This document shows positions 40,817 through 64,000 of a stretch of DNA of 64,000 nucleotides, piece by piece. A program made the translations under genes and the position numbers. The number at the start of each line of letters is the position of its first letter. Positions within the stretch are counted from its first letter, which is position 1. The stretch lies in assembly GCA_963725325.1 (NCBI GenBank), contig CAVRYF010000014.1, positions 810,390-874,389 of the forward strand, written 5' to 3'. The stretch comes from an uncultured Acidobacteriota bacterium. GTDB lineage: Bacteria > Acidobacteriota > Vicinamibacteria > Vicinamibacterales > 2-12-FULL-66-21. Under the pieces are notes generated by a model. That model did not search any database and was not told the origin of the DNA. It saw only the letters and a list, made by a program, of their open reading frames with translations.

Positions 40817-43800
40817 ATGCCTCGCAGCCTTGCAACAGCGGTCCGCCGATTTGTCAGCGCCACCTCGCGTGCGCGCGGCGAGTCGTATTTCACGAACGGC
40901 CGCGTCTCCGCCACGCGCGCGAATTCGACCACCTTCGCGGCCCTCGTGCGGGGCACACGTGCGTACAACGTCTCGCTGACGCTCGACGAGCATCGCCTCG
41001 TCGTCGACTGCTCCTGCCCGTACTTCGAGGACTCCATCAACGCGTGCAAGCACATCTGGGCCGTGATTCTCGCCGCCGATCGGGCGCACGCGTTTCAGGT
41101 GCCGGCCGAGCTTTTCCTCGACGTCCACGACGTCCGGATCGATGCCCTGTCGCCATCGCCCCTCACGCCGCCACCCCCAGCGCCACGTCCTGACTGGCAG
41201 GCCTTCCTGTCGCAGGTCACGCCTCCCCGGCCCGAAGGGCCTCCATTGCGGCTGCTCCTGCCAGGCGAGCTGATCTACGTTGTCGACCTCGTGCGTTCCG
41301 CGACGGCAGACGGGCTCCTGATCGAACTTCTCACGCGCGAGCGAAAGAAGTCCGGAGAATGGGGAAGGCCGAAGGCCGTGACCATCAATCGTCACGACAT
41401 CGCGACGCTGCCAGACCAGCGCGATCGGCAGATCCTCGACGCGGTCTGCGGCGCTACGCACGCGCATAGCTATTTCGGGCCGGCCTGGAGTGGGTACAGC
41501 GTAGGCATGCCCGTACCGGCCGCGTTCGTGCTGAACCTGACCCTGCAGCGGGATCTCGCGCGTCGGCTCGCCGAAACGAGCAGGCTGCTGTTGCGCCAGC
41601 CGGCGACCCCCGGAAGCTCGCACGGGAAGACCGTGCTCTCACCCATCGAGTGGGACCCGCAACCCGCGCAGTTCCAGCTGCGCATCACGGGCGATGCCAG
41701 TAGGGGCTATACCATCGGCGGCGAGGTTCACCGCGGAGACGAGGTGCATGCCGTCAGCGATGCGATGTTCGTGACCGGAGCGCTGATCCTGTGGCGTCCG
41801 GTCGAACCCGGCGACCCGCCTCGCCTGGCCGCATTCGACACGGGCGGTGCGGATCGGTGGATGGCCGGCCTCCTGGATGTCGGCTCCGTCACGGTGCCGG
41901 CATCGGACGCGGTGGCACTCGTTGAAACACTCGCGGTTTCCGATCTCGCGCGGCTCGAATGCCCCGAGGAACTGCGCGTCGACGCACGCGTCGAGCCTCC
42001 TCGCCCCGTCGTCCGCATCACGAGGCCAACCGCCGGTGACCCCCGGTGGTACGCATCGTCGGACCATCGACTCGAAGCGAAGTTGTCGTTCGCCTACGGC
42101 GAGTGTGAAGTGGATGCCTGGTCCGAGCAGCCGGTGTTCTTCGAGCCCGCGCGTCGGGTGGCCTGGCGGCGGGATCGGGAGGCGGAGCGTGCCGCATTCG
42201 CGCGGCTGCAGACACTCGGCGTTCGCCGACTCGCCGACTGGCAGAGCGGTGGGACCCGGCTGGACCTCGCCACGGCGCAGCTGGCGTCGGTCGTCCGGGC
42301 GCTGCTCTCGGAAGGCTGGCGCGTGGAGGCCGAAGGGCGGCTTTATCACCGGCCGGGTGTCGTGTCGCTGGACGTGCGGTCGGGCATCGACTGGTTCGAG
42401 CTGCACGGCAGTGTCGACTATGGCGGCGCGAGCGTCGATCTGCCTACGCTGCTCGCCGCGGTGCGGCGCGGCGACTCCTTCGTCCCCCTCGGCGACGGCA
42501 CGTTCGGCCTGCTCCCGGAGGACTGGCTGGCGCGCGCGGCACGCCTGACCGCTGTCGGCACGCCGGTCGCGGATCACGTGCGATTCTCGTCGTGTCAGGG
42601 GGCCCTGCTCGACGCGTGGCTCGCAACCCAGCCTGCGGTGTCCTTCGACGAGGCGTTCGCTCGCGCGCGCGCCGAGCTGGCGCGGTTCGAGGGCGTGGCG
42701 GCGATCGATCCACCGAAGACGTTCCGTGGCGTCCTGCGCGACTACCAGCGCGACGCGCTCGGGTGGTTCGATTTCCTGCGCCGCTTCGGATTTGGCGGGT
42801 GCCTCGCCGACGAGATGGGCCTCGGGAAGACCGTCATGGTGCTCGCGGCGATGGAGGCCCGTCGCGCGGAACGCGAGCGGGACCGTCGTCCAACCGTCCC
42901 ATCGCTCGTCGTCGTTCCGCGTTCGCTCGTATTCAACTGGCAGCAGGAGGCCGCGCGCTTCGCGCCCCGCTTGCGCGTGCTCGACTTCACGGGTGCCGGC
43001 CGCCGCGGCGCCCTCGACGCCATCGCGGAGCACGATATCGTCCTGACCACGTATGGAACGCTGCGGAGGGACGTCGGACTCCTCAAGGAAATCGCATTCG
43101 ATTACGCGATCCTCGACGAGGCGCAGACCATCAAGAACTCGCGGACCAGCTCGGCCAAGGCGGCGCGGCTCCTCAAGGCCACGCACCGGCTGGCGCTCAG
43201 CGGTACGCCAGTCGAGAACCACCTCGGAGAGCTCTGGAGCCTGTTCGACTTCTTGAATCCCGGCATGCTCGGCGCGGCGTCGGTCTTCGCGGCGGCGACC
43301 ACAGCCGATCCGAAGGCAAACGACGGGACGCTGGAGATGCTGGGCCGCGGGCTTCGGCCGTTCATCCTGCGGCGGACCAAGGAGATCGTGGCCGCCGAGC
43401 TGCCGGCCCGGACCGAGCAGACCTTGTACTGCGACCTCGAGCCCCCCCAGCGCGCGCTGTACGACGAGCTGCGTGACCACTATCGCGCGGCGCTCCTTGA
43501 GAAGAGCGCCCCGGTCGGGGCGCTTGGGGAGAAGAGCGCCCCGGTCGGGGCGCTTGGGGAGAAGAGCGCCCCGGTCGGGGCGCTTGGGGAGAAGAGCGCC
43601 CCGGTCGGGGCGCTTGGGGGGAAAAGCGCACCGCTCGGCCTCGGCCGGTCGAAGCTGCAGATCCTCGAGGCGCTGCTGCGCCTGCGTCAGGCGGCGTGTC
43701 ATCCCGGCCTCGTCGATCGCACGCGGGCTGTCGATCCGTCAGCGAAGCTCGACCTCCTCGTGCCGCGGCTGCAGGAACTCGTCGAGGACGGCCGCAAGGT

Positions 43801-46415: not shown

Positions 46416-48812
46416 ATGAATGTAGTCGCTGAAATGAACGCGTTCGTGAACGGACTCGACGGCCTCTGGCTGCCAGCCGTCGACGCCCTGATCAAGGTCA
46501 CGCTCGTCCTCGGCGTCGCGGGTGCCGCGGCGCTTGTGCTCGGTCGCGCGTCGGCCGCGCTGCGCCATCTGGTGTGGACGCTGGCGCTCACGAGCGCGCT
46601 GGTGCTTCCGGCCCTCTCCATCGCGCTTCCCCGTTGGCAGTTGCCGATCGTCACGCTGACGAGCGAGGCTGCGCCGGCAGCAGCCGAGGCCATGGCGACC
46701 GCCCCGTCACTGTCCCGCCGCACGCGGACGTCTGACGCCGTCGTCATCACGAAAGGCGATGCCTCGGCCGCAATCGCCCCGTCAACGCCAGCGGCAGCCG
46801 TGCCTCCCGTCGTCCGCGTCACGCCCCGCATTTCTCTGACGATGGCGCTCGTGGCGATCTGGGCGGCCGGGGTTCTCGCCGTCGTCGGCCGTCTCGTGGT
46901 CGGCATCATCGCCGTCCAGTGGATGTCGCGGCGAACCGTGCGTGTCGTCGACGCCCCGTGGCTGCCGCTCGCGCTGGAGCTGGCCTCCAGCCTCGGCATC
47001 ACGCGGCGACTGGTGTTCCTCGAGAGCGCCCGCGCGACCATGCCGATGGCGGCGGGCGTCTTCACGCCGTCGGTGCTGATGCCGGAGGATGCGAACTACT
47101 GGCCGCTCGAGCGGCTGCGCATTGTCCTCCTGCACGAGCTCGCGCACGTGAAGCGCCGCGACTGCCTGACGCACGTCATCGCGCAGCTCGCCTGCGCGCT
47201 GCACTGGTTCAACCCGCTCGCCTGGATTGCCGCGCGGCACATCAGGACCGAGCGCGAACGGGCGTGTGACGATCTGGTCCTCGCCTGCGGAACGCGGGGA
47301 CCGGACTACGCGGAGGAGCTGCTCGAGATCGCGCGTGTCATGCGCGGCGGCCGTTGCCCCGCTCTCCTCGCCGGCGCAACGCTCGCCATGGCCCATCGTT
47401 CGCAGCTCGAGGGACGTCTCATCGCGATTCTCGATCCGAAGGTGCCGCGCTCGAGTGTGTCGCCGGTCAGGGCGGCGCTCGTGGCGGCAGCAGTGGCGTG
47501 TGCGCTGCCACCCCTCGCGGCGATGCAGCCCTGGGCGGTCACCACCGTCGAGGCGACGGCAGCCGTCCCGTCCAGCGTCCTGCCCGCCGACGCAGAGACG
47601 CGCGCGCCGCAGGTCATGGCTGCTCCAACGCCGCAGCCGCAACCTCGTCCCGCGCCGTCACCGCGTCCCGAGGCCGCGTCGTCATTCGGATCGGAGATCG
47701 CTCAGACCGTGGCGGACTCGGTCCGCGACAGCGCCACGCAGGTAATGGTTCAAGGCGCCGTGCAGGGCGCCGTGCAGCAAGGTGTCCAGTCGGCGGTGCA
47801 GGGCGCTGTTCAGGGCGCACTACACGGCATCGACGTGGGAGCCATCGAGCAGGATGCGAAGCGTGCGTCCGCCGATCCCCGGATGGTCGCGGCACTGACG
47901 GCCGCGCTCAAGGACTCCGACAAGGATGTCCGCGAGACCGCCATGCATGCGCTCGTGCAGCTGCGCGATCCGTCGATCTTCGAGCCGCTCGTGCAGGCCC
48001 TGAAGGATCCGTCGCCCGACGTCCGTGAGCAGGCCGCGCATGGTCTCTCGCAGCTTCGTGACAAGCGGGCGGTAGAGCCGCTGATGGGCGCGCTGAAAGA
48101 TTCGAACGCCGACGTTCGTGAAAGCGTCATCCACGCGCTCAGCCAGCTGCGCGATCCGCGGGCAGTCGACGGGCTCATCGGCGCGCTCAAGGACGAGAAT
48201 CCGAGCGTGCGCGAGCAGGCGGCGTTCGCGCTCGGCCAGCTGCGCGATGCCCGCGCCGTCGATCCCTTGATCGCGGCGCTGAAGGACTCGAACAACGACG
48301 TCCGCCAGCAGGCGGCGTTTGCGCTCGGGCAGTTGCGCGACAAACGGGCTGCCAGCGCGCTTGCGGGCCTGATCAAGGATACCGACGCGGACGTCCGTCA
48401 GCAGGCCGTGTTCGCGCTCGGTCAGCTGCGCGACGGGTCGGCCGTGGACGGTCTCGTCCTCGCGCTGCGCGACGCGAAGCCCGACGTCCGCGAACAGGCG
48501 GCGTTCGCGCTCGGCCAGATCCGTGACGCGCGCGCTGTGCCGGCCCTGATCTCGTCGCTCAAGGACGAGGCGCCGGATGTGCGCCAACAGGCAGCCTTCG
48601 CCCTCGGCCAGATTCGCGATCGCGGAGCGGTCGAAGCGCTCGTCATCGCCATCAAGGATCCATCGGCCGACGTGCGGGAACAGGTCGCGTTCGCGCTCGG
48701 GCAGATTCGCGATCCCCGGGCCATCGACGCGCTCACGGGAGCGCTGAAAGACACCAGCGCGGACGTGCGGCAGCAGGCAGCGTTCGCAATCGGTCAGCTC
48801 GCTCGGCAATAA
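46416..48812 (+). CDS. BlaR1/MecR1-like M56 membrane metalloprotease fused to a C-terminal 10-unit HEAT-repeat domain
   Basis: It starts 2 nt after the BlaI-like stop. It has three N-terminal TM helices, the zinc motif LLHELAHVKRRD, a fourth TM (VRAALVAAAVACALPPLAA), a Pro-rich linker, a (GAVQ)n stretch and ten 31-aa HEAT units. Confidence 0.85.
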   Translation: MNVVAEMNAFVNGLDGLWLPAVDALIKVTLVLGVAGAAALVLGRASAALRHLVWTLALTSALVLPALSIALPRWQLPIVTLTSEAAPAAAEAMATAPSLSRRTRTSDAVVITKGDASAAIAPSTPAAAVPPVVRVTPRISLTMALVAIWAAGVLAVVGRLVVGIIAVQWMSRRTVRVVDAPWLPLALELASSLGITRRLVFLESARATMPMAAGVFTPSVLMPEDANYWPLERLRIVLLHELAHVKRRDCLTHVIAQLACALHWFNPLAWIAARHIRTERERACDDLVLACGTRGPDYAEELLEIARVMRGGRCPALLAGATLAMAHRSQLEGRLIAILDPKVPRSSVSPVRAALVAAAVACALPPLAAMQPWAVTTVEATAAVPSSVLPADAETRAPQVMAAPTPQPQPRPAPSPRPEAASSFGSEIAQTVADSVRDSATQVMVQGAVQGAVQQGVQSAVQGAVQGALHGIDVGAIEQDAKRASADPRMVAALTAALKDSDKDVRETAMHALVQLRDPSIFEPLVQALKDPSPDVREQAAHGLSQLRDKRAVEPLMGALKDSNADVRESVIHALSQLRDPRAVDGLIGALKDENPSVREQAAFALGQLRDARAVDPLIAALKDSNNDVRQQAAFALGQLRDKRAASALAGLIKDTDADVRQQAVFALGQLRDGSAVDGLVLALRDAKPDVREQAAFALGQIRDARAVPALISSLKDEAPDVRQQAAFALGQIRDRGAVEALVIAIKDPSADVREQVAFALGQIRDPRAIDALTGALKDTSADVRQQAAFAIGQLARQ
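47874..48809 (+). repeat. Coding tandem array of ten 93-bp (31-aa) HEAT/PBS-lyase-type repeats
   Basis: The unit consensus, read from the translation, is D.RAV..LI.ALKD...DVRQQAAFALGQLR. The first unit begins with the GAT at 47874. Confidence 0.9.
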
Positions 48813-59210: not shown

Positions 59211-59338
59211 AATGCTGAATGCTGAGTGTTGAATGCTGAAGTGAATGCTGAGGTAGCTAGGTTACTGCGAACGTCGAACGTGAGTGTGAATCTGGACTTC
59301 AGCATTCACTTCAGCACTCAGCATCAGCATTCAGCATT
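59211..59338. repeat. Imperfect long inverted repeat built from AATGCTG heptamers (complement CAGCATT on the right arm), with CGAACGT x2 in the loop
   Basis: The left arm is AATGCTG AATGCTG AGTGTTG AATGCTG AAGTG AATGCTG AG (59211-59252). The right arm is CTTCAGCATTCACTTCAGCACTCAGCATCAGCATTCAGCATT (59297-59338). An exact 18-nt pairing joins 59234-59251 to 59299-59316. An exact 12-nt pairing joins 59211-59222 to 59327-59338. Confidence 0.85.
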
Positions 59339-59398
59339 CCCCGAGCGGCCGAGGCGGCAGATTATCACACCCCTGCAGGGGTGCCAGAGGCGCCCAGG

Positions 59399-60265: not shown

Positions 60266-60559
60266 ATGGTTGTGTCCCGGGTGATGTTGCTCCTCTTTCT
60301 GACGGCTCAGGGCTTCGATGGCCTCTTCACCTACACGGCTGTCCACGCCTACGGGCTCCATGCGGAGGGCAACATGGTCATCGCTACGTGGATGGCCCTC
60401 GTCGGTCCCGCCGCGGCACTTTTCGGCGCCAAGACCGTGGCTGGCGCGTGCGGTGTGCTGCTCTACGCGCGCGGCCTGCATCGGACACTCTCCCTCCTGA
60501 CGATCGTCTATCTCGTCGGCGCCATCGGTCCCTGGCTGATGGTGTTCGTCAATCATTAG
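60266..60559 (+). CDS. Small membrane protein (DUF5658-like, 4 helices)
   Basis: MLLLFLTAQGFDGLFTYTAV...EGN resembles the DUF5658 pattern. The ORF is hydrophobic. Confidence 0.5.
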   Translation: MVVSRVMLLLFLTAQGFDGLFTYTAVHAYGLHAEGNMVIATWMALVGPAAALFGAKTVAGACGVLLYARGLHRTLSLLTIVYLVGAIGPWLMVFVNH

Positions 60560-61790
60560 CTGCTCGCGGCTGGCTGATGGCTGCTCGCGGCTCGATCTTT
60601 CTACACACGGCAATCAGGGCGACGTACGCGATCAACCCGGCGATCGTGTACACCGACCAACCGCGCGCGAGATTGAAGCCGGTTCTTCCGAGCGTCAGCG
60701 GCGAGAGGCCGGTGGTAAGCACTGCCGCAGTCCAGAACGCGCAGCGTCCCGCTCGACCGAGCAGTCGTCGATCCTGACTGTCGTAGAGAATCAGGAACGC
60801 AGGGAACAACAGCGTCCAGTAATGATCCCATGCGATCGGAGAGAGCAGGATCGCGAGAGCCGTTACTGCGGCGACCTCGGTCGGGACTGCACTCGGACGC
60901 CGCGGCGTCCTGACGATAATCACGGCCAGTGCCGCGGCGAGCAGGACCGCCAGGGCGCCGAAGAGAATTATCGTCAGCGGCGCTTCTGCTCCAACTCTGA
61001 TGCCCGCGGGATCGACGCTGGCTGACGAGGGGCCCAGCGTAAGCCGATCGAGCGCGGCTATGAGCGACTGGTTGTTGCCCCGAATCGGCCAGCCGCTGTT
61101 GCCCAGCCGCCAGAACGTTCGCGCGAGATCGGAGAAGCCTGCGACGCCGTAGATCGCTGTCGGCATCACGACCGACAGCACGAACGCCGAGGCTGTCGCT
61201 GTGATGGCTGCGGTCCAATGGCGCCGCGCCGCGAGATACAGGATCATGAGCGCTGGAAACGCCTTCAGCGCCGTCGCGATCCCAACCAGAAGACCGGCGA
61301 CGGCCGCCGACCCGAGCGTCAACTGCCAGGTCGCGCCGGCAAGGAGCGCGAGCAGCAGGGCATTCATGTTCTGGTGCTCGAAGTTGGTCTGAAGCGGCAG
61401 CAGAATCGCGACGAGCGGCGCGAAGAGCATGGGGAGCCACGACCGCGCCGGCAGTCCGATCCGTCCGCGCGCCGCGTCCCATGCCTTCAGACTCAGCCAG
61501 ATGCCCAGGCCGAGACACCCGAGATTGAGCGCGTGCCAGAGGAGCTTGGCCCCAACCGGACTCGTGGACGCCACGGCCGCGAACGGCGCGAAGAACATCG
61601 CCTGGAACGGCGGACCGATGAACCCCGCGGCGGCGCTGCTGCCGGCGTAGAGCGGCTCGGCGTACAAGACTCGCCGTCCTCCTTCGAAGAACACCGCCGC
61701 GTCGCCTCCTTTATTGAGGGCGTTCGCGGTATTGAGGATCGAGAAGAGGACCGCGAGGAGAGCGAGCAGGCGGGAGGATGTGCGGGACAC
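60549..61790 (-). CDS. Polytopic glycosyltransferase, family 87 / DUF2029-like
   Basis: Features are ...NKGGDAAVFFEGGRRVL..., ...QNMNALLLALLAG... and KAFPALMILYL, with about 10 helices. I place the start at GTG 61790 (VSRTSSRLLALLAVLF). The track ORF continues to 62414 only because the repeat tract lacks stops. Confidence 0.65.
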   Translation of the reverse strand: MSRTSSRLLALLAVLFSILNTANALNKGGDAAVFFEGGRRVLYAEPLYAGSSAAAGFIGPPFQAMFFAPFAAVASTSPVGAKLLWHALNLGCLGLGIWLSLKAWDAARGRIGLPARSWLPMLFAPLVAILLPLQTNFEHQNMNALLLALLAGATWQLTLGSAAVAGLLVGIATALKAFPALMILYLAARRHWTAAITATASAFVLSVVMPTAIYGVAGFSDLARTFWRLGNSGWPIRGNNQSLIAALDRLTLGPSSASVDPAGIRVGAEAPLTIILFGALAVLLAAALAVIIVRTPRRPSAVPTEVAAVTALAILLSPIAWDHYWTLLFPAFLILYDSQDRRLLGRAGRCAFWTAAVLTTGLSPLTLGRTGFNLARGWSVYTIAGLIAYVALIAVCRKIEPRAAISQPRAAND

Positions 61791-61804
61791 GTCTATGAAA
61801 GTGT

Positions 61805-61957
61805 GAAGTCTGACGTACGAAGTCTGAAGTTGGGAAGGACGAAGTTGGGAGTTTGAAGTAGAAGCGGCAAGTAAGCGGGAAGCGGGAAGTCGGAAGTGGG
61901 AAGTCGGAAGTGGGAAGTCGGAAGTGGGAAGTCGGAAGTGAAGTGGGAAGCTGGAAT
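61805..61957. repeat. GAAG-initiated heptamer tract; core is eight perfect alternating GGAAGTC/GGAAGTG units (four perfect 14-bp units, 61884-61939)
   Basis: Read directly: GGGAAGTCGGAAGT occurs 4 times. It is flanked upstream by degenerate GAAGTCT, GAAGTTGG, GAAGCGG and AAGCGGG units, and downstream by GAAGTGGGAAGCTGGAAT. It lies in the divergent region between the starts at 61790 (-) and 62016 (+). Confidence 0.9.
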
Positions 61958-61972
61958 CCGCCCTCGCTTCCG

Positions 61973-62012
61973 AAGACTCTTGACAGAGTCTTACAATTTG
62001 TAAGACTCTGTC
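61973..62012. promoter_or_regulatory. Probable PadR operator: perfect 31-bp palindrome (61982-62012) overlapping a second 8-4-8 palindrome (61973-61992)
   Basis: GACAGAGTCTTACAA-T-TTGTAAGACTCTGTC ends 3 nt before the PadR ATG. The half-site AAGACTCT occurs at 61973 and 62002 and its reverse complement AGAGTCTT at 61985. A TACAAT hexamer is at 61992-61997. Confidence 0.6.
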
Positions 62013-62015
62013 GCC

Positions 62016-62324
62016 ATGAAGAGCGCGCGGCTGCCCACCCTCTCGGCCAAGGAGCGCATCGTCCTCGAGTTGCTTGTCTCGTCGGGCGGGAGGTACGGGC
62101 TGCAACTGGTCGACGAATCCCGCGGGCGGCTGAAGCGTGGAACCGTCTACGTCACGCTCGGCCGGATGGAGCAGAAAGGGCTCGTCGAATCGCGTCACGA
62201 GCCCGCGACGCGCGAAGAGGACGCGCTCACCCGCCGCATGTATCACGCGACCGGACACGGCCGGCGGGTCTTGGATGCCTGGAACCTCGTGGCGCGGACG
62301 CTGGCGCCGGAGCCGGGCCGATGA
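62016..62324 (+). CDS. PadR-family winged-helix transcriptional regulator
   Basis: ERIVLELLVSSGGRYGLQLVDESRGRLKRGTVYVTLGRMEQKGLVESR is the typical PadR wHTH pattern. Confidence 0.85.
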   Translation: MKSARLPTLSAKERIVLELLVSSGGRYGLQLVDESRGRLKRGTVYVTLGRMEQKGLVESRHEPATREEDALTRRMYHATGHGRRVLDAWNLVARTLAPEPGR

Positions 62325-63280
62325 CGAACACGCGAGTGCCGGGGGCGCGATTGCGTCGATTCGCGGAGCGGACGTTCGATCGCCAGACGCTCGACCGCGT
62401 GGTGCAGCCGGCAATCGCGGATCTGCAGCACGAGTGCGTCGGAGGAGCGGCGTTCGTTCGGGCTCGAGCTTATGTCGGGGTCTGGAAAACGTTCTGCGTG
62501 TGTCTCGTCGGCGATGCAGTGCGAGACCGCCAGGGCTGGACTCGATCGATCGCCGCCCGGACTGTTCTATACCTGCTTCTGCTGGCCGGCCTGATCTTGC
62601 TGCCCGGGATCGGCTGGTGGCGCTCGTTCGCGGATGCTCACGGCCGGAGCACGGCGGCCGCGGCGGCAGCTTTCTTCCTGCCAGCCACCCTCGTCATGGC
62701 GCTGCCGATGGCGTTCTTCCTTGCCATCGCCTTGCGGCGTTCCGATGATGGGCCGAGGCTCGTGGGGCTCATCCCGGCAACGATCGCGGCCGCAACAGCG
62801 TGCGCCGTCGTCATCCTCTGCGGCGTCATGTTCTTCGTGCCGTACACCAACCAGGCGTACAGAGAGGTCGTCTTCAACGCGCTCTCCCCCTCAATCGATA
62901 ATGCCCCGCGGGTCCTCAGCAAAGGGTTGCCGGAGATGAACTGGGTCGAGTTGAACGAGCACATACGCTACGCTCCGAGCAGCCGTCAGGAGGCCCTCGC
63001 GCGTGCGCACCGGCAGTTGCGGTTCGCGATGTCAGCCTCGGCATTCGTACTCGCCATGCTCGGTCTTGGACTGACTCGCCGCTGGCGCTCGCGGACGGCT
63101 ACGGCTGCCGCGGCGTTGGTTGTACTTCTCGTGTACGGCACGTTCCTCTTCCTCGGGCACGAGATCGACGGTGGCGGATATCCATCTGCCTACAGTGTGT
63201 GGGCGGCGAACCTCGCTTTCGCTCTCGCCGGGCTGCGTCTCCTGCGGTCAAGGCGGGACTGGACCGACGTGGCCGCATAG
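62321..63280 (+). CDS. PadR-linked integral membrane protein, LptF/LptG (YjgP/YjgQ)-like permease lacking the periplasmic domain (tentative)
   Basis: An ATGA overlap joins it to the PadR stop. It has six hydrophobic helices in a 3+3 arrangement. The segment LPEMNWVELNEHI...RAHRQLRFAMSASAFVLAMLGLGL resembles, from memory, the conserved LptF/G segment preceding TM4. The upstream part of track ORF 61910.. is discounted. Confidence 0.6.
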   Translation: MTNTRVPGARLRRFAERTFDRQTLDRVVQPAIADLQHECVGGAAFVRARAYVGVWKTFCVCLVGDAVRDRQGWTRSIAARTVLYLLLLAGLILLPGIGWWRSFADAHGRSTAAAAAAFFLPATLVMALPMAFFLAIALRRSDDGPRLVGLIPATIAAATACAVVILCGVMFFVPYTNQAYREVVFNALSPSIDNAPRVLSKGLPEMNWVELNEHIRYAPSSRQEALARAHRQLRFAMSASAFVLAMLGLGLTRRWRSRTATAAAALVVLLVYGTFLFLGHEIDGGGYPSAYSVWAANLAFALAGLRLLRSRRDWTDVAA

Positions 63281-63294
63281 CTGGAGCGCGACGA

Positions 63295-64000
63295 ATGACG
63301 ACGGAATTGCGCCGGCCGGGATCGCGGCTGCGGCGGTTCGCCGAGCAGACGTTCGAGCAAGAGACCCTCGACCGCGTCGTGCTGCCGGCGATCGCGGATC
63401 TGCAGCACGAGTGCGTCGAGGGGGCTTCGTTGACCGTGCGCCTGCGCGCCTATGTTGGCGTGTTGAAGGCGATGGCGATGTGCAAGATCGGAGACACCAA
63501 TCGCCACGCGCGTCCGACCTTCAAGAGGGTGTCAAAGCGCATGGCGATCATCGTTCCGATCGCCATGTTCGCTGCCATGGTTCCAACGTTGAACATCGCG
63601 TTCAACGGACGGCACTCACCTGGCTGGTTTCTGTGGACCTCTACGCCACAAGCTTTCGCGTTAGCGCTTTTGGTCGCGTATTACTTCTCCGTGACGCTGG
63701 AACAATGGCCGACGTCGCCGCGTCGCTTGCTGCCGGCCATTTCTGCCATGTCGTTGGTTTGCACGCTTGTGATGCTGAGCATGACGATGTCGATCCTGCC
63801 GCTCGCGACTCAGTCGTATCGAGCGTCGGTCGCCGAACGCCTGCGTGCTGCTGGTCGAACCGCCCAGGCGGAGACCGTGACACTCGGATCATCGGAGTGG
63901 ACGTTCACGGACTTAATCCGCCATGCGGCGAGTGCGTCGCCTGCCGACCGTGCGCGCGCCCGTCAGGAGTTCGCGAAGCGGCTGACGACGGCAACGATGC
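63295..64000 (+). CDS. Paralogue of the preceding membrane protein (3' end outside window)
   Basis: It is not in the ORF track because no stop occurs before the window end. Manual translation from ATG 63295 is open to 64000. Its N-terminus SRLRRFAEQTFEQETLDRVVLPAIADLQHECV is near-identical to ARLRRFAERTFDRQTLDRVVQPAIADLQHECV of the upstream gene. Confidence 0.65.
   Translation, partial: MTTELRRPGSRLRRFAEQTFEQETLDRVVLPAIADLQHECVEGASLTVRLRAYVGVLKAMAMCKIGDTNRHARPTFKRVSKRMAIIVPIAMFAAMVPTLNIAFNGRHSPGWFLWTSTPQAFALALLVAYYFSVTLEQWPTSPRRLLPAISAMSLVCTLVMLSMTMSILPLATQSYRASVAERLRAAGRTAQAETVTLGSSEWTFTDLIRHAASASPADRARARQEFAKRLTTATM

Follow-up and report, generated by a model that had tools for sequence, protein, structure and literature searches.

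Regulators of the PadR family have efflux and detoxification genes as their classical targets, and resistance loci are known in which a PadR gene precedes one for a membrane protein, for example bcPadR1 (BC4206)/BC4207 of B. cereus. In the HAAS-PadR dyad, proposed as an alternative to two-component signalling, a small N-terminal helical domain present on varied multi-transmembrane (multi-TM) proteins has been suggested to pass signals from the membrane on to a stand-alone PadR (Ravi et al. 2024, mSystems, PMC11237479). The fusion partners of HAAS include FtsX/MacB-PCD permeases, FtsW/RodA and 'uncharacterized 6TM' proteins, and a body of the LptF/G type is not mentioned in that work (PMC11237479). 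Here we describe a locus at the end of a 64,000-nucleotide (nt) stretch of an uncultured Acidobacteriota genome (contig CAVRYF010000014.1; the whole stretch is called the window hereafter), in which a PadR gene is followed by two genes, A and B, for membrane proteins made of an N-terminal domain, called the prefix, and a body resembling LptF and LptG. We put at roughly 55% the probability that these genes form an autoregulated three-gene operon, in which a PadR and its membrane-tethered partners would work in the manner of a HAAS-PadR dyad, on an ATP-independent module derived from LptF/G.

Gene order and the LptF/LptG-like bodies

The PadR gene (62016-62324, plus strand) encodes a protein of 102 amino acids (aa) of the short single-domain winged-helix type, and gene A (62321-63280, plus strand), the A-type gene, encodes a 319-aa protein consisting of the prefix and a six-TM LptF/G-like body. 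Gene B (63295-64000, plus strand), the B-type paralogue, is cut by the end of the window, which holds 235 aa of its 318 aa; its own prefix occupies nt 63295-63504 (plus strand, aa 1 to ~70) and is again followed by an LptF/G-like body. The TGA stop of PadR and the gene A ATG at 62321 share bases in the sequence ATGA, and the spacer between genes A and B measures 14 nt and contains GGAG (63283-63286, plus strand), a Shine-Dalgarno-like element read from the sequence and located 9 nt 5' of the gene B ATG. The three genes are translationally coupled or closely spaced. An earlier sequence-only reading of this stretch had described the ATGA overlap and a gene B running to the window end, and had placed both membrane proteins under the PadR gene. 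Both points hold. A metagenome contig of the European Nucleotide Archive (ENA), numbered L003 among the related loci, is 99.9% identical to the window (2 mismatches in 2,001 aligned bases) and extends past it, so that the full gene B can be read there as a 318-aa gene (L003:4286-5242). The 4-nt ATGA-type overlap between PadR and the next gene is also present in the distant members L134-L136 and in L012.

The relationship of the bodies to LptF and LptG, which had been proposed from the letters alone, was recovered both by profile search and by structure comparison. Pfam PF03739 (LptF_LptG, gathering score 27.9) matches gene A with 45.7 bits and the full gene B with 36.5 bits (E=3.8e-9), and ten distant members with 34-86 bits, the match being confined to the C-terminal half (profile ~235-353). 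The segment preceding TM4, in which a likeness to LptF had been seen, does align with positions 241-352 of the LptF_LptG profile and with LptF residues 258-345 of solved structures. When a profile of 28 relatives was compared with the sequences of the Protein Data Bank (PDB), the nine best matches were all LptF (best E=2e-5) and one other match was returned at E=0.28; in this search TM4-TM6 align convincingly and TM1-TM3 weakly.

AlphaFold2 (AF2) models gene A as an all-helical protein with a 3+3 layout (predicted local distance difference test score, pLDDT, 86; predicted template-modelling score, pTM, 0.79), and a B-type orthologue is modelled with the same layout (pLDDT 84). Hydropathy agrees with this arrangement, as the sequence-only reading had held. 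In Foldseek searches against the PDB, the top 26 matches of A and the top 13 of the B-type orthologue are all LptF/G, with a probability of 1.00 for nearly all of them, and the TM-score reaches up to 0.79 (root-mean-square deviation 3.6 Å) against LptF/G structures in which the membrane part alone is modelled. By profile and by predicted model, then, A and B share the six-helix fold of LptF/LptG, the type VI transmembrane domain of ATP-binding cassette (ABC) transporters. They also keep the LptF/LptG (YjgP/YjgQ) motifs VP-ANQ-FR at the end of TM3, KG-xE-T--EL...R before TM4 and W-xN at the start of TM6. The NCBIfam equivalog cut-offs are not reached: on LptF (TIGR04407, cut-off 230) gene A scores 21.1 and gene B 23.9 bits, and on LptG (TIGR04408, cut-off 240) gene A scores 15.1 bits.

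Two features of LptF and LptG are missing from these bodies. E. coli lptF and lptG were aligned to a 57-sequence family profile using hhalign and distances were measured between conserved anchor residues. The TM3-end motif and the pre-TM4 arginine stand a median of 54 residues apart in the family (39-65), compared with 141 residues in LptF and 144 in LptG of E. coli. The AF2 models of A and of the B-type protein contain zero β-strands, and in gene A the periplasmic TM3-TM4 connector (62885-62980, plus strand; aa 189-220) is modelled as coil with one 9-residue helix. The gaps opened by hhalign point the same way. The periplasmic β-jellyroll (~120 aa) is absent and a short connector stands in its place, which agrees with the loss that had been deduced from a short inter-helix loop.

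The second missing feature lies between TM2 and TM3. The coupling helix of LptF and LptG, which enters the groove of LptB, has the form Φ----EΦ-ΦΦ---G, and its Glu is reported to be strictly conserved even in distant homologues and essential for assembly with LptB (Simpson et al. 2016, PMC5082905). This motif was found in 0 of the 57 family members while both E. coli controls were positive, and acidic residues (Asp/Glu) never rise above 9% in the TM2-TM3 loop columns. The TM2 proline is separated from the TM3-end proline by a family median of 52 residues (48-59), where LptF and LptG of E. coli each have 65; the TM2-TM3 loop is ~13 residues shorter than in E. coli and counts 7-9 residues in the AlphaFold models, that of gene A being a cytoplasmic loop of ~9 residues (62732-62758, plus strand; aa 138-146). 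On hhalign a 12-residue gap faces ESEITVMHACGL in LptF, while the corresponding TM2-TM3 loop of LptG is faced by separate gaps that add up to 12 residues. Judged by the length of the loop, the absence of the motif and the AF2 model, on which together the exact placement of the deletion rests because the TM1-3 alignment is weak, the coupling helix between TM2 and TM3, to which LptB docks, is deleted. Given that jellyroll and coupling helix are both gone, the two features behind ATP-driven lipopolysaccharide (LPS) extraction are lost: a link of A/B to LptC/LptA would be impossible because the β-jellyroll is absent, and so would canonical LptB docking because the coupling helix and its conserved Glu are absent. 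The working permease core that had been supposed here is therefore not supported.

Neither is the ATPase that had been expected beyond the window. No ATPase is encoded 3' of gene B on L003, which extends the window by 10 kb and where the next genes are a convergent one of 139 aa and that for seryl-tRNA synthetase. Furthermore, no open reading frame (ORF) of an ABC ATPase, with Walker-A and LSGGQ, was found within 6-10 kb of 13 genomic or long loci, and no ORF with Walker-A and an ABC signature adjoins any prefix gene in ~400 kb of metagenomic loci.

The prefix domain and its linkage to PadR

The prefix of gene A (62321-62524, plus strand; aa 1-68) is predicted to be cytoplasmic and is modelled by AF2 as three helices (9-18, 21-39 and 44-68), with the motif PG-LRR-A-R...V-P-IADLQ-E. 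Most of it has no LptF/G counterpart, since the hhalign alignment begins at gene A residue 56 with LptF or 67 with LptG. Given that LptF/G and MacB/ADOP bodies have a cytoplasmic N-terminus, as indicated by hydropathy and by the topology of solved structures, the prefix would be located in the same compartment as PadR. Helix 3 is amphipathic: its Kyte-Doolittle hydropathy peaks at 1.2, and K/R residues flank it at either end. It was considered as a seventh TM helix and rejected, as its hydropathy of 1.2 stays below 1.5, its flanks are basic and such a helix would invert the known N-in topology of LptF/G and ADOP bodies. Likewise, 'RLRRFAE' was rejected as a Tat signal peptide, being followed by charged helices and by no hydrophobic h-region.

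P30 and D34 never vary in an unbiased alignment of 57 sequences, in which A33, Q36 and E38 each reach 90% conservation or more. The prefix gave zero matches in Pfam, NCBIfam and the PDB sequences, even at E=10; the NCBIfam 'permease prefix' models did not match it either, and 27 prefix sequences left the HAAS models DUF1700, DUF1129 and DUF1048 unmatched in hmmscan searches with E up to 10. A protein search with a 72-aa prefix query returned one match, P0033, which is the front half of a frameshifted B-type gene.

Over their whole length genes A and B share 35% identity (BLASTP E=2e-36), a value that rises to 75.6% in the first 41 residues and falls to 26% across the membrane body. The contrast between a shared N-terminus of ~40 aa and diverged bodies, as first read from the sequence, is real, 'near-identical' being a slight overstatement for that N-terminus. 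The same contrast holds in all six of six tandem LptF/G-like pairs, in which the prefixes are 51-76% and the bodies 26-38% identical, and in the window the A-B prefix identity even exceeds that between A-A orthologue prefixes. Prefixes of paralogues that are so much more alike than their bodies fit two prefixes serving one PadR.

To follow the prefix beyond these genes, a metagenome collection was scanned with a degenerate DNA pattern for V-x-P-x-I-A-D-L-Q-x-E; ~120 loci were returned and were analysed with hidden Markov models (HMMs) for prefix, body and PadR. In 103 metagenomic loci, 112 prefix ORFs were found. PadR is directly upstream, and mostly overlapping, in 90 of 103 evaluable prefix ORFs, and 9 more are second or later tandem genes; among the genomic loci PadR adjoins the prefix gene in ten out of ten. 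As for what the prefix is attached to, at least nine membrane-body classes were distinguished. LptF/G-like bodies account for about one quarter of the prefix ORFs and ADOP permeases for 12; a complete 894-aa prefix-ADOP protein shows the prefix at 1-82 followed by TIGR03434 positions 3-803, and full-length ADOP proteins with the prefix are present in L023 and L065. The remaining bodies belong to at least seven classes without a known domain, of ~210-225 aa (35 cases), ~160 aa, ~300-330 aa and other sizes. On the longer contigs of the distant LptF/G-like members (L134-L136), PadR is found with the 4-nt overlap and no ATPase is present. The common N-terminus of A and B, rightly recognized in the sequence-only reading, is hence not a quirk of two paralogues: what had been missed is a modular, PadR-linked domain carried by at least nine body classes. 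PadR and prefix form the conserved unit and the membrane body is interchangeable. In one non-LptF/G class a single PadR is followed by four successive prefix-bearing membrane-protein genes (L037:1691-5248), and by two in L111.

The PadR protein of the window matches Pfam PF03551 with 41.1 bits (E=1.8e-10; gathering score 27), and the nearest solved structures are the short PadRs 5dym and Rv3488 (5zhc). On TIGR03433, the acidobacterial PadR paralogue family, it scores 25.4 bits and does not reach the cut-off of 101.8. The 78 PadRs that adjoin prefix genes constitute one coherent subfamily, 43-59% identical to the window PadR, in which the motifs LKRGTVYVTLxRMExKG and GLPRRxY are kept. PadRs of ~100 aa are without the C-terminal effector domain of PadR subfamily 1.

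The LptF/G-like family itself is large. A word-indexed search gave 32 close relatives. When 1.84 billion cluster representatives (50% identity) were searched exhaustively with a profile, the yield was at least 1,759 clusters with E<=1e-3, mostly from soil, and 554 with E<=1e-10; among the 150 matches listed, nearly all measure 300-350 aa and align with the profile over its full length, including the prefix. The genome-derived members identified all come from Acidobacteriota metagenome-assembled genomes, one of which is assigned to Vicinamibacterales. In their sources the relatives are annotated either as 'hypothetical protein' or as 'LPS export permease LptF/LptG'. A Marmoricola locus (L011) was discarded as spurious, the supposed relative being an out-of-frame ORF opposite a transposase gene.

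Copy number and gene order vary within the family. About half of the related loci have a single copy of the LptF/G-like gene, and in L002:8926-9961, L004:1877-2787 and L009:5901-6959 a frameshift divides the B-type paralogue, through either pseudogenisation or assembly error. A heterodimer of A and B, as formerly suggested, is plausible for the tandem pairs and is not obligatory, given the single-copy loci and the three frameshifted B genes. The order of the paralogues is PadR-A-B in the window, L002 and L004 and PadR-B-A in L001:6743-9032 and L006:4680-7005. Among the neighbours, a gene with an LptD_2 domain (L135:4205-6580) is divergent from one PadR/LptF/G-like operon, and two other operons have ADOP/MacB-type permease genes (L001:9019-10899 and L134:9083-11284) close to their 3' end, in opposite orientation; this may be coincidence, since Acidobacteriota have many ADOP paralogues.

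The candidate operator and the surrounding DNA

Upstream of PadR, at 61982-62012 (both strands), lies a perfect inverted repeat of 15+15 nt with a 1-nt spacer, 31 bp in all, which is the candidate PadR operator. Its letters are GACAGAGTCTTACAA T TTGTAAGACTCTGTC, the arms were 100% complementary in an inverted-repeat search, and its 3' end is located 3 nt before the PadR ATG. The palindrome core AGTCTTACAAnTTGTAAGACT is found in exact form at the equivalent place 5' of PadR in L001-L007 and in degenerate form in L009 and L010; the outer bases of the arms vary among loci, yet the palindrome mostly reaches past the core. In the 64-kb window the palindrome is single-copy, with a chance expectation of 0 matches, and no further operator copies hinting at a regulon were found there.

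The left arm is overlapped by TTGACA (61979-61984, plus strand), a -35-like hexamer read from the sequence, and TTGAC(A) or TTGAT is present at the equivalent site in the orthologous loci L001-L007, L009 and L010. We regard this hexamer as a putative promoter element; a consensus promoter scan called no full sigma-70 promoter at it. Taken by its sequence and position, the palindrome looks as would be expected of an autoregulatory PadR operator overlapping its own promoter, and PadR would bind to it. Between the palindrome and the PadR ATG no Shine-Dalgarno sequence fits, which makes a leaderless or near-leaderless mRNA possible, and PadR may be translated from such a messenger.

Several repeats and one gene-calling artefact were observed in and beyond this intergenic region. 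A 621-aa ORF called mechanically on the minus strand opposite PadR (60549-62414) is an over-extension, the GT87-family gene of L003 corresponding to window positions 60563-61804 (413 aa). Between this divergent GT87 glycosyltransferase gene and PadR, positions 61873-61950 form a tandem array of the 7-nt unit AAGTGGG or the 14-nt unit GGAAGTGGGAAGTC, the latter in 4.5 copies with a 97% match and with more degenerate copies back to ~61798. The AAGTGGG heptamer family also occurs 5' of PadR in the orthologous locus L005, on the opposite strand. Short, mutually inverted heptamer arrays, AATGCTG / TTCAGCA, are located at 59211-59252 and 59296-59339 between an SDF-type symporter gene and a methyltransferase gene, and intergenic heptamer arrays may typify this genome. 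Farther away, a 30-nt unit GAGAAGAGCGCCCCGGTCGGGGCGCTTGGG is repeated 4.7 times with 96% identity at 43499-43638, with a GC-rich hairpin in each unit, and a repeat of 93-nt period (48134-48799, 7.2 copies, 67% match) probably codes for a 31-aa protein repeat.

A possible membrane-tethered signalling pair and its alternatives

Taken as a whole, the locus looks like a membrane-tethered signalling pair more than a transporter. As in the HAAS-PadR dyad, a short stand-alone PadR gene stands beside a three-helix N-terminal domain that is carried by diverse multi-TM modules. The pairs of a TIGR03433 PadR and an ADOP permease (TIGR03434) come from the same phylum and have the same PadR-then-permease order and no adjacent ATPase, and the prefix of our locus is also present on the full-length ADOP proteins of L023 and L065; they differ by their FtsX/MacB-type body, compared with the LptF/G type here, and by a PadR family whose cut-off the window PadR does not reach, so that the two pairings are distinct, as had been anticipated. 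LptF and LptG are likewise often encoded by two tandem paralogues, but A and B differ from them by a ~65-aa extra N-terminal domain, a cotranscribed PadR, common single-copy versions and the lack of an adjacent lptB. A small autoregulated winged-helix repressor that is cotranscribed with a membrane partner and has a palindromic operator at its promoter is also a trait of BC4206/BC4207, of anti-sigma factors and of BlaR1-BlaI; in these systems, however, the membrane partner is not homologous, and A and B are without a protease or kinase domain. In the searchable literature we found no description of LptF/G homologues lacking jellyroll and coupling helix, nor of the prefix domain, and searches there for a link of LptF with PadR, or for acidobacterial LptF/G without a jellyroll, gave nothing relevant.

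The mechanism that we propose for the signalling pair is the following. PadR would bind the palindrome and repress its own operon, while the cytoplasmic prefixes of A and B would serve as PadR-binding modules. The LptF/G-derived TM dimer, a heterodimer of A and B here and a homodimer at single-copy loci, would be an ATP-independent sensor or effector. Its ligand would probably be a lipid or a lipopolysaccharide-like or amphiphilic molecule, bound in the lateral membrane cavity that serves LptFG for lipid A. A conformational change driven by ligand or stress would pass to the prefix, which would capture or release PadR at the membrane and in this way set the level of operon expression. Such a regulatory logic would resemble that of the HAAS-PadR dyad or of an anti-sigma/sigma pair.

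A number of points weigh against this reading. We infer both the contact between prefix and PadR and the nature of the sensed signal. TM1-3 align poorly with E. coli LptF/G, the hhalign probability being 13% for LptF and 88% for LptG. Sequence similarity between the prefix and DUF1700, DUF1129 or DUF1048 is not detectable, and the invariant Pro of the prefix is situated in helix 2 (V-x-P-x-IADLQ-x-E), whereas the GxP kink of HAAS is in helix 3. The conservation of the IADLQ motif in the metagenomic set was ascertained by the search pattern, which does not apply to the PadR linkage and the diversity of bodies. Moreover, the contigs are short, ATPases of ABC systems can be unlinked, and ADOP permeases are 'orphans' by name.

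An alternative that we think unlikely is that A and B are an orphan ABC permease: the TM dimer of an extractor or exporter driven by ATP, with its ATPase gene at another place in the genome, which is the assumption made for the ADOP 'orphan' permeases, with PadR as a ligand-sensing detoxification repressor and the prefix tuning or coupling the transporter. The bodies do come from an ABC transmembrane-domain family, the prefix is also found on ADOP/MacB-type permeases, which represent another such family, PadR regulators classically govern efflux and detoxification, and MacB/ADOP-type genes are nearby in L001 and L134. In addition, the main coupling element of MacB-type proteins precedes TM1, the same place that the prefix occupies. 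However, the sole known element of the LptF/G fold for docking a nucleotide-binding domain is missing in 57 of 57 members, no ATPase was seen in ~115 loci, and the prefix is also present on membrane proteins of ~160 aa and ~210 aa, too small for permeases.

We judge equally improbable that PadR senses a small molecule directly and that A and B are passive protective or structural proteins, lipid- or bacteriocin-binding as for BC4207, the prefix then providing oligomerisation, localisation or stability. Resistance loci that pair a PadR with a membrane protein are known (PMC3506622), and the operator and the autoregulation would be compatible with any PadR system. Left unexplained, however, are the travelling of one N-terminal domain with one PadR subfamily across at least nine unrelated bodies and the ~2-fold stronger conservation of prefix than of body between paralogues that share a PadR; furthermore, PadRs of this ~100-aa size have no C-terminal effector domain. 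Finally, that A and B are simply the canonical, if divergent, LptF and LptG of this organism is suggested by the automated annotation 'LPS export permease LptF/LptG' and by a Pfam match above threshold, but is excluded by the membership tests and carries almost no probability, considering the missing β-jellyroll, coupling helix and lptB, equivalog scores far below the cut-offs, the control by PadR, the extra N-terminal domain, the variable copy number and a B copy that is often frameshifted.

Beyond the locus, it is possible, though we put it forward tentatively, that a whole clade of the LptF/G fold has been exapted from LPS extractor to ATP-independent receptor, which would sequester a dedicated PadR through an undescribed N-terminal domain (PG-LR--A-R ... 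V-P-IADLQ-E), unrelated in sequence to HAAS and serving as a plug-in for ADOP and at least seven other families.

Both kinds of component are known, the LptF/G fold and the PadR-partner dyads, and it is a large family that has been consistently mis-annotated: the labels 'LPS export permease LptF/LptG' are misleading in Acidobacteriota genomes and soil metagenomes because this clade lacks two features needed for that function. Prefix and PadR make up a large modular system, experimentally untouched, in a phylum with few characterised regulators, and its parts are concrete, namely a 31-bp operator, a 102-aa repressor and a 65-aa partner domain with the conserved residues P30, A33, D34 and E38. 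The system also gives a handle on why acidobacterial 'orphan' ADOP permeases sit behind PadR genes. If our reading is true, the membrane domain of an ABC transporter would here have outlived both the interface to its ATPase and the domain that hands on its substrate, which would bear on the recruitment of transporter folds as sensors.

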